A stretch of DNA of 32,291 nt, taken from positions 1-32,291 of the IMG/VR virus record IMGVR_UViG_2925939204_000003. One strand, written 5' to 3'. Source of the stretch: a virus (lineage: Duplodnaviria > Heunggongvirae > Uroviricota > Caudoviricetes). The notes beneath the pieces were generated by a model. That model was not told the DNA's origin, searched no databases, and saw only the letters and a list, made by a program, of their open reading frames with translations. Below, piece after piece: positions 5,402 through 32,291 of this stretch. How positions within the stretch are numbered: position 1 is the first letter of the stretch; each line of letters begins with the position of its first letter. The position numbers and the translations under genes are program-made.

Positions 5402-5459
5402 AAAAAGGGCGGCAGAGCAGTCACGGAGTAAAACTGATACCGCCAAACGTCACCAGAAA
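5402..5459 (-). ncRNA. dicF: DicF small RNA (53 nt, 5407..5459) plus 3' U-tract of its intrinsic terminator
   Basis: Reverse complement reads UUUCUGGUGACGUUUGGCGGUAUCAGUUUUACUCCGUGACUGCUCUGCCGCCC then UUUUU; lies between ydfC and dicB as in Qin. Confidence 0.8.
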
Positions 5460-6047: not shown

Positions 6048-6176
6048 TCAGCCGTTAGATTTTGCCGAGCTGGAAAGCGCCTGTTTAAACTCACTGAAGC
6101 TGAGAGCTTCTTCGCCTTCGGCAAGGCCTTCGAAGTATTCTTCGTAAGCCTTTTCCATGATTGTGTCGAAATCCAT
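6048..6176 (-). CDS. ydfB: YdfB-like small protein (42 aa)
   Basis: Hand translation: MDFDTIMEKAYEEYFEGLAEGEEALSFSEFKQALSSSAKSNG; below the 60-aa ORF-track cutoff; sits between ydfA stop and ydfC. Confidence 0.55.
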   Translation of the reverse strand: MDFDTIMEKAYEEYFEGLAEGEEALSFSEFKQALSSSAKSNG

Positions 6177-6177
6177 A

Positions 6178-6333
6178 TCACTCACCTGAGTTTCTTTCCA
6201 GCCAGCGACGGGCACCATTTTCGGTTTTAAACGTTTTGCTTTTGGTATACGTCATCGCGGTGAACGTACCGTCCTGGTTGGGGAACACGCCACATACCAG
6301 AGATTCGCTGTTGCCAAGATCGATAGTATCCAT
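6178..6333 (-). CDS. ydfA: YdfA-like small protein (51 aa)
   Basis: Internal start MDTIDLGNSESLVCGVFPNQDGTFTAMTYTKSKTFKTENGARRWLERNSGE within ORF 6178..6414. Confidence 0.6.
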   Translation of the reverse strand: MDTIDLGNSESLVCGVFPNQDGTFTAMTYTKSKTFKTENGARRWLERNSGE

Positions 6334-6514
6334 GCTGACCTCATTTCCCCTTAACGCCGGGGTAGCGGAACAAAAACCTGCTGCATAGTTATTAAAGTTG
6401 AACCCTGCCGTCATGTTCTTACGCCTCGGGCTGGCTACTTAACCCCTGACCACTGCCTGGTAACTCGAAGTATTGCCCTGCATTCTGTGGGGCGGGGTGG
6501 GTTGGTATGCCGTT

Positions 6515-6534
6515 AAGGTAACAAGAGTTACCTT
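6515..6534. promoter_or_regulatory. Left operator candidate: palindrome AAGGTAAC-AAGA-GTTACCTT (core GTAAC-N4-GTTAC) with overlapping leftward promoter (-35 TTGACT on minus strand)
   Basis: Same GTAAC-N4-GTTAC core occurs twice in the repressor/cro intergenic region. Confidence 0.5.
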
Positions 6535-6575
6535 TCGAGTCAATACGATGTTGCAAAAGGTACATTTGAGAGCGT

Positions 6576-6600
6576 GAAAAACCCGCAATGAATGCGGGTT
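6576..6600 (-). terminator. Intrinsic terminator downstream of repressor gene
   Basis: Minus strand reads AACCCGCA-ttcat-TGCGGGTT followed by TTTTC. Confidence 0.6.
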
Positions 6601-6605
6601 CTGAC

Positions 6606-7280
6606 TCAGTCTAAGTATTGATGTATTTGTGAAACTTTACCTTTAATGGTGTAACCACCATTCAGTTCGATGGGTTTGTAAAGCGGATTCAGTGACAACA
6701 GATAGATGTTTGGTCCGTCAATCGCAACTTTTTTTAGTGTTACGTTTGGCGTTCCTTCCAATTGGATTAAGATTATTTTTCCCACCAGTTCTCTAATGTT
6801 ACTTGAGCATGGTGTGATCAGCACGGTAGATCCATCGGGGATGGTTGGGAGGCCGTTAGAGTTTGTCATCGCATCTCCCTCAACATGCAATAAAAAAGAG
6901 TTTTCAGCGGTTTTTGTCATGACATCAACCCAATTCTTAATGCCAGGAATCTCGGTTACTGGACAACTCATATCCCAATAACCAGCCTGTTCCCACGTTA
7001 AAACGGGCAACCGGGCGATGTTGTCACTAATGTAAAGATACTGATTCAGACGCAGATCATCGGTTTTATCGTGACCGTCCTTTCCATAAAGAATCCATTC
7101 AGGAGATTTGGAAAGCAATTTTGACAGTAGATGCAAATTCTCACCGTCAGGTTTTGAAGAGCCATTTTCCCATTTTGTTACGGATACACGAGATATGCCG
7201 ATTGCTTTCGCAACCTGCTGTTGGGTTAATCCAACGTCTTTTCGACGATTCCGAATACGTTCGCTGATAGTGTTTTTCAT
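6606..7280 (-). CDS. Prophage repressor, P22 C2 / lambda CI type (N-terminal HTH, C-terminal S24 LexA-like peptidase domain)
   Basis: N-terminus MKNTISERIRNRRK..LTQQQVAKAIGISRVSVTKWENG aligns with recalled P22 C2; S24 domain in C-terminal half; start set at M34 of the track ORF because the upstream extension is TTG-initiated and runs through the operators. Confidence 0.8.
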   Translation of the reverse strand: MKNTISERIRNRRKDVGLTQQQVAKAIGISRVSVTKWENGSSKPDGENLHLLSKLLSKSPEWILYGKDGHDKTDDLRLNQYLYISDNIARLPVLTWEQAGYWDMSCPVTEIPGIKNWVDVMTKTAENSFLLHVEGDAMTNSNGLPTIPDGSTVLITPCSSNIRELVGKIILIQLEGTPNVTLKKVAIDGPNIYLLSLNPLYKPIELNGGYTIKGKVSQIHQYLD

Positions 7281-7294
7281 GTAACCAATGTTAC
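7281..7294. promoter_or_regulatory. Operator GTAAC-CAAT-GTTAC abutting repressor start codon (OR3-like; PRM -10 TAACAT inside it, leaderless arrangement)
   Basis: Perfect 5-bp half-sites with 4-bp spacer immediately upstream of the ATG. Confidence 0.5.
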
Positions 7295-7315
7295 CACCAA
7301 GTGATGTTGCTATGG

Positions 7316-7321
7316 TTGACA
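7316..7321 (+). promoter_or_regulatory. Candidate PR -35 hexamer TTGACA for the cro-like gene
   Basis: Consensus -35 seen; no convincing -10 at 17-bp spacing, so promoter assignment is tentative. Confidence 0.35.
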
Positions 7322-7328
7322 TTGCTAT

Positions 7329-7342
7329 GTAACTATTGTTAC
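7329..7342. promoter_or_regulatory. Operator GTAAC-TATT-GTTAC in repressor/cro intergenic region
   Basis: Second copy of the same palindrome, 48 bp from the first. Confidence 0.5.
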
Positions 7343-7371
7343 TCTCCTGCTCGAAATAACAGGAGAGTTTT

Positions 7372-7587
7372 ATGTTCAAAGATGATGTTCTGCGCTATTT
7401 CAAAAAAAAGCGACTAGTAGCTGAGGCTCTTGGAATTTCACATGTGGCTGTTGTGCGGTGGCAAGCAGTTATTCCCAAACTTCGCGCAATGGAACTGGAT
7501 GAAATTACTAACGGTGAATTGAAATACAACCCAGAACTTTACAAGAAGCAGGATAGCACCTCGAACGAAGGAAAGAATGATTCATGA
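7372..7587 (+). CDS. Cro-like small HTH regulator (YdaS-like)
   Basis: 71 aa, divergent from repressor, SD AGGAGA upstream; HTH-like LVAEALGISHVAVVRW. Confidence 0.6.
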   Translation: MFKDDVLRYFKKKRLVAEALGISHVAVVRWQAVIPKLRAMELDEITNGELKYNPELYKKQDSTSNEGKNDS

Positions 7588-8009
7588 AAATCAAGCATGA
7601 ACACATCCGCATGGCGATGAATGCCTGGGCGCATCCGGACGGCGAAAAAGTACCGGCTGCGAAAATTACCAAAGCGTATTTCGAGCTGGGAATGACGTTC
7701 CCGGAACTGTATGACGACAGCCATCCGGAAGCCCTGGCTCGCAATACCCAGAAAATTTTCCGCTGGGTAGAGAAAGACACCCCTGATGCAGTTGAAAAAA
7801 TTCAGGCGTTGTTACCAGCGATCGAAAAGGCAATGCCACCTTTGCTGGTGGCCAGAATGCGCAGCCACAGTTCAGCTTATTTTCGGGAGCTGGTGGAGAC
7901 GCGGGAGCGACTGGTGAGAGACGCTGATGATTTTGTCGCAGTGGCAATCGCCGGTTTCAATCAGATGAACCGTGGTGGCCCGGCAGGAAATGCTGTGGCA
8001 GTACATTGA
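7584..8009 (+). CDS. YdaT-like regulatory protein (CII-position)
   Basis: 141 aa starting MKIKHEHI; start overlaps cro-like stop (ATGA). Confidence 0.5.
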   Translation: MKIKHEHIRMAMNAWAHPDGEKVPAAKITKAYFELGMTFPELYDDSHPEALARNTQKIFRWVEKDTPDAVEKIQALLPAIEKAMPPLLVARMRSHSSAYFRELVETRERLVRDADDFVAVAIAGFNQMNRGGPAGNAVAVH

Positions 8010-10457: not shown

Positions 10458-10584
10458 TTTTATGGATCACCTTTCTGATTGATTTCATATTGGCGAGGTG
10501 ACGTGAGTTAAGTAGAATGGCTGCGGGTGCTTGAGGCTATCTGTCTCAGGCATGAACACTGAAAGGCAGATAGAGAAAAGCCCC

Positions 10585-10646
10585 AGTTAACATTACGCGT
10601 CCGGCAAGACGCTTAACATTAATCTGAGGCTCAATCTATGAACGGC
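10585..10646 (-). ncRNA. Predicted Sok-like antisense RNA of the hok locus
   Basis: Minus-strand promoter -35 TTGCCT (10676..10681) and -10 TAACCT (10653..10658) at 17-bp spacing, placed as in plasmid R1 hok/sok; extent of RNA approximate. Confidence 0.3.
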
Positions 10647-10694
10647 AAATCTAGGTTAGCCTCTTACGTGCCGAAAGGCAAGGAGAAGCAGGCT

Positions 10695-10850
10695 ATGAAG
10701 CAGCAAAAGGCGATGTTAATCGCCCTGATCGTCATCTGTTTAACCGTCATTGTGACGGCACTGGTAACGAGGAAAGACCTCTGCGAGGTACGAATCCGAA
10801 CCGGCCAGACGGAGGTCACTGTCTTCACAGCTTACGAACCTGAGGAGTAA
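10695..10850 (+). CDS. hok: Hok-family type I toxin (51 aa)
   Basis: MKQQKAMLIALIVICLTVIVTALVTRKDLCEVRIRTGQTEVTVFTAYEPEE matches Hok (HokD/RelF-like); SD AAGGAGAAG; conserved upstream leader motif TAGCCTCTTAC. Confidence 0.75.
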   Translation: MKQQKAMLIALIVICLTVIVTALVTRKDLCEVRIRTGQTEVTVFTAYEPEE

Positions 10851-14264: not shown

Positions 14265-14340
14265 GGCCCTTTAGCTCAGTGGTGAGAGCGAGCGACTCAT
14301 AATCGCCAGGTCGCTGGTTCAAATCCAGCAAGGGCCACCA
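14265..14340 (+). tRNA. tRNA-Ile2 (anticodon CAU, lysidine type; ileX/ileZ-like)
   Basis: Clean cloverleaf; anticodon loop CUCAUAA; close to recalled E. coli ileX sequence. Confidence 0.8.
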
Positions 14341-14341
14341 G

Positions 14342-14418
14342 CCGCCACTAGCTCATCAGGAAAGAGCGTCAACCCTTTAAGTTGAGTGTGCGAGGTTCGA
14401 GTCCCCGGTGGCGGTCCA
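14342..14418 (+). tRNA. tRNA-like gene, anticodon ambiguous (loop CCUUUAA, nominal UUU); possibly degenerate
   Basis: Acceptor, D and anticodon stems pair; position 33 is C not U; one A-C mismatch in T-stem. Confidence 0.45.
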
Positions 14419-14420
14419 GT

Positions 14421-14496
<76 letters not shown>

Positions 14497-14499
14497 TAT

Positions 14500-14574
<75 letters not shown>

Positions 14575-31710: not shown

Positions 31711-32291
31711 TGGCATTCAGAATGAGTGAACAAGCACGGACCATAAAAATTTATAACCTGCTGGCCGGAACTAATGAATTTATTGGTGAAGGTGACGCAT
31801 ATATTCCGCCTCATACAGGTCTGCCTGCAAACAGTACCGATATTGCACCGCCAGATATTCCGGCAGGCTTCGTGGCTGTTTTCAACAGTGATGAGGCATC
31901 GTGGCATCTCGTTGAAGACCATCGTGGTAAAACGGTCTATGACGTGGCTTCCGGCGACGCGTTATTTATTTCTGAACTCGGCTCATTACCGGAAAATGTC
32001 ACCTGGTTATCCCCGGAAGGGGAGTTTCAGAAGTGGAACGGCACAGCCTGGGTGAAAGATGCAGAAGCAGAAAAACTGTTCCGGATCCGGGAGGCGGAAG
32101 AAACAAAAAACAGCCTGATGCAGGTAGCCAGCGAGCATATTGCGCCGCTTCAGGATGCTGCAGATCTGGAAATTGCAACGGAGGAAGAAACCTCATTGCT
32201 GGAAGCCTGGAAAAAGTATCGGGTGTTGCTGAACCGTGTTAATACAACAACTGCACCGGATATTGAATGGCCAGTAGCACCTATAGGGTAA
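31710..32291 (+). CDS. tfa: Tail fibre assembly protein Tfa
   Basis: [37 protein letters not shown] matches recalled lambda Tfa; start overlaps stf stop (TAATG). Confidence 0.85.

Follow-up and report, generated by a model that had tools for sequence, protein, structure and literature searches.

The closest described systems to the locus considered here are the switches of phages lambda and P22, the DicA/DicC region of the Qin prophage and the YdaS/YdaT module of prophage CP-933P in E. coli O157:H7. In lambda, cI and cro are divergent and flank a tripartite OR of about 70 bp, with a further set of operators at PL, past where cI ends; between OR3 and the cI ATG there are 10 bp, and OR2 is centred at -42. 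In Qin, DicA and DicC control the dicB operon, ydfA(DUF1391)-ydfB-ydfC-DicF-dicB, which runs leftward, and DicA is not known to have an S24 domain. P22 uses symmetric operators with four central bases that its repressor does not contact (PMC4267663). In CP-933P, Cro-like and YdaT genes follow PR, with OM, the operator of YdaT, lying where the cro-like gene ends (PMC9986795), while paaR2, the repressor gene and CI analogue there, is in an operon with the toxin-antitoxin genes paaA2-parE2; the operators are 18-bp palindromes with the consensus half GTTTAGTAA, and four inverted repeats have been described (PMC8630535).

Architecture of the locus and comparison with known switches

The window, meaning the whole 32,291-bp stretch of DNA analyzed, is an E. 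coli Qin/Rac-like lambdoid prophage. Across the switch, Pfam identifies a repressor gene with HTH_3 and Peptidase_S24 domains on the minus strand, a divergent cro of the P22_Cro family on the plus strand, and a YdaT-family gene. We consider it very likely that this region is the lysis-lysogeny switch of the prophage, laid out on the P22 c2/cro plan and working through the binding and mechanism proposed below. Its features are listed here from left to right, with bit scores from a position weight matrix (PWM) trained on the OR1 and OR3 sites of 11 loci only, the window's own OR1 and OR3 being 2 of the 22 training sites.

6515..6543, minus strand: predicted PL, -35 TTGACT at 6543..6538, 17-bp spacer, -10 TACCTT at 6520..6515, read from the sequence
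6518..6531: OL1, predicted perfect operator GTAACAAGAGTTAC, overlapping the PL spacer and -10; exact match, 22.6 bits
6550..6563: OL2, GTTGCAAAAGGTAC, predicted as a weak operator; its distance from OL1 is 32 bp, and it lies just upstream of the PL -35; PWM 9.6 bits
6577..6600, minus strand: intrinsic terminator of the repressor gene, hairpin AACCCGCA/TGCGGGTT then a U-run, recognized as an inverted repeat plus T-run
6606..7280, minus strand: CI-like repressor, 224 aa, HTH_3 and Peptidase_S24, recognition helix SRVSVTKWE
7281..7294: OR3, predicted perfect operator GTAACCAATGTTAC, adjoining the repressor ATG; exact match, 23.1 bits
7306..7319: OR2, predicted degenerate middle operator GTTGCTATGGTTGA (TCAACCATAGCAAC on the cI-sense strand), overlapping the PR -35
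7316..7345, plus strand: predicted PR, -35 TTGACA at 7316-7321, 18-bp spacer, -10 TACTCT at 7340-7345, read from the sequence
7329..7342: OR1, predicted perfect operator GTAACTATTGTTAC with an all-A/T centre, between the PR -35 and -10; exact match, 19.9 bits
7341..7368, plus strand: 9-bp perfect inverted repeat ACTCTCCTG-N10-CAGGAGAGT, arms at 7341-7349 and 7360-7368
7372..7587, plus strand: cro, 71 aa, P22_Cro family (Pfam E 6.5e-16), recognition helix ISHVAVVRW
7577..7594: YdaT-type operator ATGATTCATGAAAATCAA, differing from TTGATT-N6-AATCAA at one position, where cro stops and ydaT starts
7584-8009: YdaT, near-identical to solved YdaT structures (E 1.8e-90 to PDB 3c4r, 1e-81 to 8bt1)

The locus resembles P22 in the N-terminal domain of its repressor, which is closest to the solved N-terminal domain of P22 c2 (E 2.6e-12), in the family of its cro, and in its symmetric operators with 5+4+5 cores, an OR start-to-start spacing of 23/25 bp and an OR3 reaching the repressor ATG. 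In Emek, a phage of P22 immunity, the cores lie at -64, -41 and -16 as against -62, -39 and -14 here, 2 bp closer to the ATG, and where the P22-type OR3 holds TAAGAT, OR3 of the window holds the corresponding TAACAT. The specificity, however, is not that of imm P22: the P22 half-site is TTAAG and the helix SNVAISQWE, whereas here they are GTAAC and SRVSVTKWE, and since the half-sites differ the phages should be heteroimmune and fall into different immunity groups. Further differences are that two OL sites are detected here against three candidates in the P22-type region, that YdaT takes the place of C1/CII, that no N-like gene follows PL, and that the catalytic Ser is Ala here.

With lambda the locus shares the divergent cI/cro pair, the tripartite OR of similar length and the further operators at PL, past where cI ends, but the 17-bp lambda operators are unrelated in sequence to the 14-bp cores found here, OR3 of the window covers the -10 and adjoins the ATG, and lambda Ser149 is replaced by Ala. 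The Cro-like and YdaT genes after PR are shared with CP-933P, and where cro and ydaT meet there is a site of the TTGATT-N6-AATCAA type, in the place of OM; within the window ATGATTCATGAAAATCAA is the only match to this motif with at most one mismatch. CP-933P differs in its paaR2 operon, the window having an HTH plus S24 repressor instead, and in O157 genomes the PL leader is the only part of the window that is matched. The leftward operon is the same as that of Qin, whereas the regulator is a CI-type HTH plus S24 protein with other operators.

The full immunity module was found in 701 of 5,426 complete E. coli genomes (about 13%), including ST131-type strains. DNA common to other prophages (3,707 genomes) stops at about 6510, directly beside OL1 and PL, and this marks the module boundary. 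A nucleotide search of isolated phages matched the PL-leader segment only and did not find the immunity module; the best isolated-phage repressor is 43.5% identical. Phages AH07, ZF40 and vB_EcoS-733R5, together with APSE-like prophages, are members of the immunity group.

A probable operator motif in the immunity region

The exact motif GTAAC-N4-GTTAC (GTAACNNNNGTTAC) occurs three times in the window, at 6518-6531, 7281-7294 and 7329-7342, where about 0.03 copies would be expected by chance (our own arithmetic), and none of 100 dinucleotide-preserving shuffles of the window gave any match. In 150 kb of host chromosome there was no exact copy, and with one mismatch there were four against about four expected; among 94 non-redundant related viral contigs (933 kb in total), no exact copy lay outside the OR and OL zones. 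A sequence-only reading of this DNA had reported three perfect copies, one inside a 20-bp palindrome at the start of the leftward operon and two between repressor and cro, and had proposed that they form the operator set of the repressor/cro module. The copies are exact at 6518, 7281 and 7329; the first lies in an inverted repeat at 6515-6534, an 8+4+8 palindrome AAGGTAAC-AAGA-GTTACCTT, and the latter two (7281-7294 and 7329-7342) lie in the gap between repressor and cro, given a repressor start at 7280. The proposal that they are operators agrees with their fixed positions in relatives and with covariation with both recognition helices, but the set was incomplete, as two weak sites, OR2 (7306-7319) and OL2 (6550-6563), had been missed.

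Around the 14-bp core we infer an extended operator consensus, CATGTAAC-AATT-GTTACATG. The motif GTAAC-N4-GTTAC has no description in the searchable literature, where motif strings matched only an unrelated HcpR regulon paper; papers on ZF40 dealt only with Aca2 and anti-CRISPRs, and the literature search yielded nothing usable on P22 PRM geometry.

Conserved geometry and covariation across relatives

About 40 related loci were examined individually, from several genera and with repressors 29-99% identical, and in these the OR sites are fixed at -62, -39 and -14 from the repressor ATG, with one to three sites at PL. Twelve loci that we aligned (repressors 41-89% identical) have OR1, OR2 and OR3 starting at just these positions without indels, and the same OR geometry recurs in 16 further genomes and 94 viral contigs; operator positions stay constant while the flanking DNA diverges. 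OR1 lies 48 bp from OR3 in all relatives and is present with at most one mismatch in 92 of the 93 viral loci that reach its position; OR3 is present in at least 119 viral contigs, and its junction with the ATG is kept in nearly all relatives, one having a 3-nt gap. We rejected a recent 48-bp duplication as the origin of OR1 and OR3: the DNA flanking one is unlike that flanking the other, and different genera keep the same arrangement.

The fifth base of the half-site covaries with one residue of the recognition helix, the one that precedes the invariant Trp, and does so for CI and for Cro. GTAAC is accompanied by ...TKWE in CI and ...RW in Cro; GTAAG (Halomonas, Ferrimonas) or TTAAG (P22) by ...TQWE and ...(Q/L)W; and GTAGG (mEp390) by ...TGWE and ...GW. 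We take the three copies of GTAAC-N4-GTTAC to be, almost certainly, where repressor and Cro bind in a lambda/P22-type switch.

Because the weak OR2 adds to OR1 and OR3, the predicted OR is tripartite, as in P22 and lambda. OR2 matches the core at six of ten positions and ranks 32nd of 32,272 window positions by PWM, at the expected place; it sits at -39..-26 in all 12 aligned loci, and its right half follows the specificity of the locus, being GTTAC in AH07, 733R5 and locus L013 and CCTAC in mEp390. The order in which the sites are filled is not readable from sequence, since OR3 matches the consensus as well as OR1 does; by analogy with the P22 repressor, which favours A/T-rich non-contacted operator centres (PMC4267663), OR1 with its A/T-only centre should be the strongest site. 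The start of PR is predicted at about 7352, and the PR equivalents of relatives have TTGACA with TACCTT, TACCCT or TACATT at identical coordinates.

As read from the same comparison, OL is bipartite, with OL1 over PL and the weak OL2 upstream of the PL -35. OL2 ranks fourth of 32,272 window positions, at its expected position, and in relatives the second OL site lies 31-35 bp upstream of OL1. The OL1 equivalent overlies TTGAC(A/T)-N17-TAC(C/A)TT after the cI terminator in most relatives examined; in the Salmonella locus L008, no such site was found. A GC-rich hairpin with a T-run likewise follows the repressor stop in most relatives examined. Transcription from PL, predicted to start at about 6508, would enter ydfA(DUF1391)-ydfB-ydfC-DicF-dicB-exo.

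A consensus promoter and terminator scan of 6300-7700 called no sigma-70 promoter and one terminator-like site, inside the repressor gene. Matches to consensus are weak, and PR, PL and PRM were consequently assigned by conservation; PL was missed because its -10 agrees with the consensus at only three of six positions, while the pair TTGAC(A/T)/TAC(C/A)TT is conserved in relatives. We also considered the conserved PL leader (6390-6510) as an antiterminator RNA like put of HK022, and rejected this: its sequence does not resemble the immunity region of HK022, its fold is no stabler than that of shuffles (z = +1.1), and RNAalifold returned only a 3-bp invariant hairpin without covariation. Rfam gave no match at the gathering threshold in 6150-7450, and at a permissive E-value threshold only chance-level ones (Trp_leader, E 0.1; TLS-PK6; Mu-gpT-DE).

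A probable leaderless repressor promoter

The repressor ATG (7280-7278, MKNTISERIR...) is directly adjoined by the site at 7281-7294, which on the minus strand reads G-TAACAT-TGGTTAC-ATG, with TAACAT at 7293..7288, 7 nt before A7280. No Shine-Dalgarno (SD) sequence precedes the ATG; positions -14..-1 are the operator GTAACATTGGTTAC itself, with no AGGAG-like element. A TAnnnT hexamer lies inside OR3 in 12 of 12 loci, and the combination of an operator abutting the ATG and a TAnnnT -10 within it is kept in different orders of Gammaproteobacteria. The sequence-only reading had pointed to the site at the ATG and the TAACAT within it, correctly, and had suggested a leaderless, autoregulated PRM; the abutment, the absent SD and the TAnnnT in OR3 support such a promoter, which would be negatively autoregulated. 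If the mRNA starts at A7280, the centre of OR2 falls near -32.5, over the would-be -35, and since this is not -42 a lambda-style activation of PRM from OR2 is doubtful. Leaderless precedents are lambda cI and paaR2 of CP-933P (PMC8630535).

Alternative explanations

The arrangement at PRM depends on where the repressor starts, and RefSeq/PGAP places the start at ATG 7322, 14 codons upstream of 7280, giving a protein of 238 aa. On that annotation 7281-7294 would be intragenic, 7329-7342 would be the only true intergenic operator and the mRNA would not be leaderless. The extension frame is open in five relatives, and gene callers assign 238-240 aa to the closest homologues, but as protein the extension is poorly conserved (IATSLGG, ITTPLSS, MVTHLGG, KVTRISC, EGTQKPS) while the remainder is 66-89% identical. 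The ATG at 7322 is formed by the complement of the PR -35 (TTGACAT), and locus L011 has GTG in its place; no SD precedes it, AGGAG coming no nearer than 22 nt. Homologues that share 42-52% identity have lengths of 215-221 aa and begin at MK..., and the operator adjoins the ATG also in Halomonas, Ferrimonas and P22-type phages. We regard a start at 7322 as unlikely; the comparative evidence favours 7280, and 7322 is a probable start-codon misannotation in RefSeq. Another alternative concerns the 9-bp inverted repeat, which the sequence-only reading had found to span the cro SD and thought able to sequester it in RNA. The repeat is indeed perfect and its right arm holds the SD (AGGAG 7361-7365; cro ATG 7372), a perfect 9-bp repeat within about 100 bp is improbable by chance (about 0.01 expected, our own estimate), and RNA from 7338 folds to -13.3 kcal/mol (z = -2.1). 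Its left arm (7341-7349), however, overlaps the discriminator and the predicted PR -10 (7340-7345), a -10 conserved in relatives, so that a transcript from about 7352 should lack this arm, and RNA folded from 7352 is without the hairpin and leaves most of the SD unpaired. Nor is the pairing conserved: the repeat is absent from the closest relatives not of the E. coli type (L002, L005, L008 and L011), whose operators are the same and whose cro is related, it is imperfect in L015 and L016 and in the common E. coli allele (left arm ACCCTTCTG or ACCCTTCTA), and only 16 of 693 E. coli genomes have it perfect. That a hairpin in the PR transcript hides the SD and controls Cro translation is thus unsupported and seems very improbable; the repeat is a rare, lineage-private allele outside the conserved switch, and probably unimportant.

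The operators themselves might be bound by Cro or another factor only, and not by the S24 repressor, or might be elements of promoters or of DNA structure whose conservation has nothing to do with recognition by a protein. Parts of the sites do coincide with promoter hexamers (TAACAT in OR3, and the TAC of the PR and PL -10), and covariation with the sites is as good for Cro as for CI, so that it cannot by itself tell the two proteins apart. Yet in distant loci the recognition helix of CI shows independent covariation, the palindromic halves outside the promoter hexamers are equally conserved, and the N-terminal domain of P22 c2, the closest solved relative, binds equivalently placed P22-type sites. 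With these observations, either explanation seems very unlikely, and binding by both repressor and Cro is the reading adopted below.

Proposed mechanism and possible role as a silencer

In the mechanism we propose, dimers of the CI-like repressor, and of Cro, would recognise the 14-bp cores GTAAC-N4-GTTAC, the HTH reading the outer five bases and the central four probably being read indirectly. In a lysogen the repressor would fill OR1 (plus OR2) and OL1 (plus OL2), and this occupancy would shut off cro-ydaT-replication rightward and ydfABC-DicF-dicB-exo leftward. Repressor mRNA would have its 5' end at the AUG, or only a few nucleotides away, and so be leaderless; it would come from a presumably weak PRM with the -10 TAACAT, a TG upstream of it and no recognisable -35, and repressor or Cro at OR3 would block PRM, resulting in negative autoregulation.

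The C-terminal domain of the repressor aligns to lambda CI and keeps the Ala-Gly cleavage site (EQAGYW) and the Lys (TLKKV), but the catalytic Ser is Ala (GDAM, residue 137, aligned to Ser149 in GNSM of lambda). The Ser/Lys dyad needed for RecA-stimulated self-cleavage, and for SOS induction through it, is therefore incomplete. Among 78 homologues the nucleophile is Ser in 72 and Ala in 4, and all copies of the window-type repressor have Ala. Speculatively, and as something less likely than not, one may see in this E. coli lineage a locked, SOS-blind silencer, with a CI-type protein doing the work of DicA in a prophage that has been domesticated. Such a repressor would have kept its DNA-binding domain, dimerisation fold and cleavage site and lost the protease nucleophile (Ser137Ala), the strong OR3 over the leaderless promoter would hold its level steady, and the chief task left to it would be silencing of the PL operon, with the cell-division inhibitors DicB and DicF, whether or not DNA is damaged. 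If so, the locus would not be a working lysis-lysogeny switch.

Meaning for the immunity group

The architecture is of the ordinary lambda/P22 type and already known, and what is undescribed in the searchable literature is the DNA specificity; the general understanding of such switches is unchanged, and the locus stands as a well-behaved example. The half-sites and helices form a natural specificity series for P22-type HTH domains, with K/R before the Trp paired with C, Q with G, and G in mEp390 with its GTAGG. With the operator code GTAAC-N4-GTTAC comes a full predicted map of sites for an immunity group often met in E. coli and widely distributed among phages of Enterobacterales, and this map permits heteroimmunity to be predicted from sequence.

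Prophage Context and Distribution

The stretch belongs to a lambdoid prophage whose insertion adjoins mtfA/tRNA-Ser, and E. coli EBJ003 (NZ_CP086334) is a 100% match over the queried 1.2-kb immunity region, 6400-7600. A Qin-type operon lies left of the repressor, comprising DUF1391/ydfA, ydfB, ydfC, the DicF sRNA, dicB and an 813-aa exonuclease. In EBJ003 the integrase gene carries an annotated frameshift (6610-7660 of locus L001, equal to about 1009-2059 here), which suggests a defective, non-excising prophage. The annotated genes and the Rfam gathering-score matches are as follows.

5407-5458, minus strand: DicF sRNA, in the PL operon (Rfam match)
6606-7280, minus strand: repressor, 224 aa, HTH_3 and Peptidase_S24
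7372-7587, plus strand: cro, P22_Cro family
7584-8009, plus strand: YdaT-family gene
10525-10700: sok antitoxin RNA, adjoining hokD (Rfam match)
14265-14571: four prophage tRNA genes, clustered downstream of the Q antiterminator gene (Rfam matches)
32053-32251: IS009 RNA, at the right end of the window (Rfam match)

At 98% identity or more, the module (6400-7600) is carried by 701 of 5,426 complete E. coli genomes, while its first ~110 bp alone (6400-6510, the PL leader) are common to a further ~3,000, placing a mosaic junction immediately beside OL1 and PL. Identity to the repressor falls off gradually among its homologues, from 99% to about 40%, and no repressor in the isolated-phage collection is more than 43.5% identical to this one.

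A Conserved Set of Probable Operators

The sequence-only reading had described three perfect copies of GTAAC-N4-GTTAC, the left one inside a longer palindrome, and these were confirmed: GTAACNNNNGTTAC occurs exactly three times in the window, at 6518 (OL1), 7281 (OR3) and 7329 (OR1), with the left site embedded in an 8+4+8 palindrome (6515-6534). None of 100 dinucleotide-preserving shuffles gave an exact match (expectation ~0.03 by our own arithmetic). With up to two mismatches allowed, the window holds 16 matches against 9.1 expected, thus only the perfect sites stand out. The motif is not frequent at random positions, as no exact site was found in 150 kb of host DNA, sampled at three places elsewhere on the chromosome (one-mismatch sites: 4, about 4 expected). 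In 94 related, non-redundant viral contigs (933 kb in total), no exact site falls beyond the OR or OL zones.

The comparison covered loci of close homologues (repressors 89, 88, 70 and 66% identical), of farther ones from Hamiltonella, Arsenophonus and Yersinia (52, 52 and 47%), and of phages AH07, ZF40, mEp390 and vB_EcoS-733R5. Aligned from the repressor ATG, the 12 loci show no indel at all: OR1 lies at -62 to -49, OR2 at -39 to -26 and OR3 at -14 to -1, and the GTAAC/G(T/G)TAC halves are kept in the relatives while their flanks diverge. The same layout was seen in all 16 extra loci from a scan of one genome per species, the genera of which include Yersinia, Buttiauxella, Kosakonia, Rahnella, Erwinia, Edwardsiella and Celerinatantimonas. 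An exact 20-mer of OR3 plus ATGAAA is present in at least 119 IMG/VR contigs, and of the 93 non-redundant contigs that reach the OR1 position, 92 have OR1 (at most one mismatch) 48 bp from OR3.

A PWM built from OR1 and OR3 of 11 loci, with OL1 left out of training, ranked the three perfect sites highest in the window (23.1, 22.6 and 19.9 bits). Rank 4 of 32,272 positions fell to GTTGCAAAAGGTAC at 6550-6563 (9.6 bits), the predicted OL2, 32 bp from OL1, where a further OL site lies in relatives. The position expected for OR2 (7306-7319) ranked 32, and its core matches at only 6 of 10 positions in this lineage. A direct repeat, TGATGTTGCTATG / TGACATTGCTATG (7302-7314 and 7317-7329, 15 bp apart), runs across OR2 and the PR -35; it may be a remnant of operator duplication or a functional element.

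Predicted Promoters and the Probable Start of the Repressor

PR (reading into cro) and PL (reading into the leftward ydfA-dicB operon) were predicted together with a terminator. The consensus scanner called none of the three, so that the calls rest on conservation.

7316-7345, plus strand: PR, -35 TTGACA (7316-7321), 18-bp spacer, -10 TACTCT (7340-7345)
6543-6515, minus strand: PL, -35 TTGACT (6543..6538), 17-bp spacer, -10 TACCTT (6520..6515)
6577-6600: repressor terminator before PL, hairpin and U-run

In relatives the PR -10 is TACCTT, TACCCT or TACATT. Because the operators sit between and over the hexamers, their binding should occlude RNA polymerase.

RefSeq/PGAP starts the repressor at ATG 7322 (WP_069067232.1, EBJ003), 14 codons before the conserved MK... 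start, which would put OR2 and OR3 inside the coding sequence. This is probably a systematic misannotation, and we favor 7280, since the 14 extra codons show no conservation as protein, ATG 7322 is only the PR -35 plus T read on the opposite strand (GTG in the relative L011), inspection found no SD upstream of it, more distant homologues are 215-221 aa long, and an operator also abuts the ATG in Halomonas, Ferrimonas and P22-type phages.

With 7280 as the start, an SD has no space. From the OR3 core into the start codon the sequence reads G-TAACAT-TGGTTAC-ATG, and the TAnnnT hexamer inside OR3 is kept in 12 of 12 loci, though its last two bases fall in the “free” centre; a TG one base upstream resembles an extended -10, and is found in only 5 of the 12. 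Lambda cI and CP-933P paaR2 are leaderless by experiment (PMC8630535). The absence of SD room and the kept hexamer support a leaderless or near-leaderless repressor mRNA with its -10 covered by OR3, an arrangement that would give negative autoregulation; the leaderless, autoregulated PRM proposed earlier is well supported by comparison. With +1 at A7280, OR2 is centred near -32.5. In lambda OR2 is centred at -42, and lambda-style activation of PRM is therefore doubtful here.

Which Proteins Probably Read the Sites

The half-site covaries with both CI and Cro, the key residue directly preceding the invariant recognition-helix Trp.

Recognition-helix residues and operator half-sites by class
Window and its class: CI ...TKWE; Cro ...RW; half-site GTAAC
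Halomonas (L038) and Ferrimonas (L039), sites upstream of 1201: CI ...TQWE; Cro ...LW / ...QW; GTAAG-N4-CTTAC
P22-type: CI ...SQWE; Cro ...SQW; TTAAG-N4-CTTAA
mEp390 (L019 1420-1500): CI ...TGWE; Cro ...SGW; GTAGG-N4-CCTAC

mEp390, Halomonas and Ferrimonas share the -62/-39/-14 architecture of the window with different half-sites, and the right half of OR2 follows class as well (GTTAC in AH07, 733R5 and the relative L013; CCTAC in mEp390). The half-site follows one recognition-helix residue in both CI and Cro, a natural specificity series, and we infer that a basic residue makes chemical sense as the partner of C at base 5 (G opposite). P22 c2 is the closest solved structure to the repressor N-terminal domain; P22 repressor makes no contact with the four bases at the centre of its operators (PMC4267663). 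In the P22-immunity region of phage Emek the OR cores lie at -64, -41 and -16 from the c2 ATG, an identical 23/25 bp spacing offset by 2 bp, which makes the window a P22-architecture switch of different specificity. Fixed positions in relatives and covariation with both helices leave the proposed operator set well supported at the sequence level.

The S24 nucleophile Ser is replaced by Ala at repressor residue 137 (GDAM, GGA GAT GCG ATG, 6870-6881, aligning to lambda CI GNSM Ser149), and we therefore predict that the repressor does not cleave itself and is SOS-blind. Both the Ala-Gly cleavage site and the catalytic Lys are intact. Among 78 homologues this position is Ser in 72 and Ala in 4; Ala is found in all window-type E. 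coli and viral copies, and also in an 89%-identical E. coli relative and a 70%-identical one from Salmonella.

The Inverted Repeat, Candidate YdaT Site and PL Leader

The 9-bp inverted repeat (7341-7349/7360-7368), which is perfect, had been proposed to sequester the cro SD in RNA. That proposal is not supported: the predicted PR -10 and discriminator overlap its left arm, which a transcript from about 7352 would lack, and RNA folded from 7352 forms no inverted-repeat hairpin and leaves the SD mostly unpaired. None of the four nearest relatives outside the E. coli type has the repeat, and ACCCTTCTG or ACCCTTCTA forms the left arm in the common E. coli allele. Of 693 genomes, only 16 match the 57-nt segment at 100% identity, and 599 show one or two differences. 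The perfect repeat is therefore a private allele rather than an element of conserved control, and two substitutions may have made it perfect. If a leftward PRE-type transcript were made, the minus-strand repeat would fold more strongly in it (-17.4 kcal/mol, z = -6.7).

One mismatch separates ATGATTCATGAAAATCAA (7577-7594) from TTGATT-N6-AATCAA, the experimentally defined YdaT operator. It lies exactly where cro stops and ydaT starts, and occupies the same place as OM in CP-933P (PMC9986795). This site, and the near-identity of the YdaT protein (7584-8009) to the solved PDB 3c4r and 8bt1, imply a putative PRE-like leftward promoter under YdaT control.

The PL leader (6390-6510, minus strand), a stretch about 110 bp long just downstream of PL, is common to ~3,700 of 5,426 E. 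coli genomes of different immunity types. Pantoea phage AH07 and a prophage of Arsenophonus also carry its core motif, AAGTAGCC(A)GCCCGAGGCGTAAGAA, and Pectobacterium phage ZF40 has a variant of it. The leader has no Rfam match and no significant fold, and no N gene lies downstream of PL in the window. An HK022 put-like element was considered and rejected, since the leader does not resemble the HK022 immunity region, where the put sites should lie.

Taken by its sequence, the module would represent a new immunity specificity within the known lambda/P22 kind of switch, which is not surprising, but useful for annotation and for the prediction of heteroimmunity.
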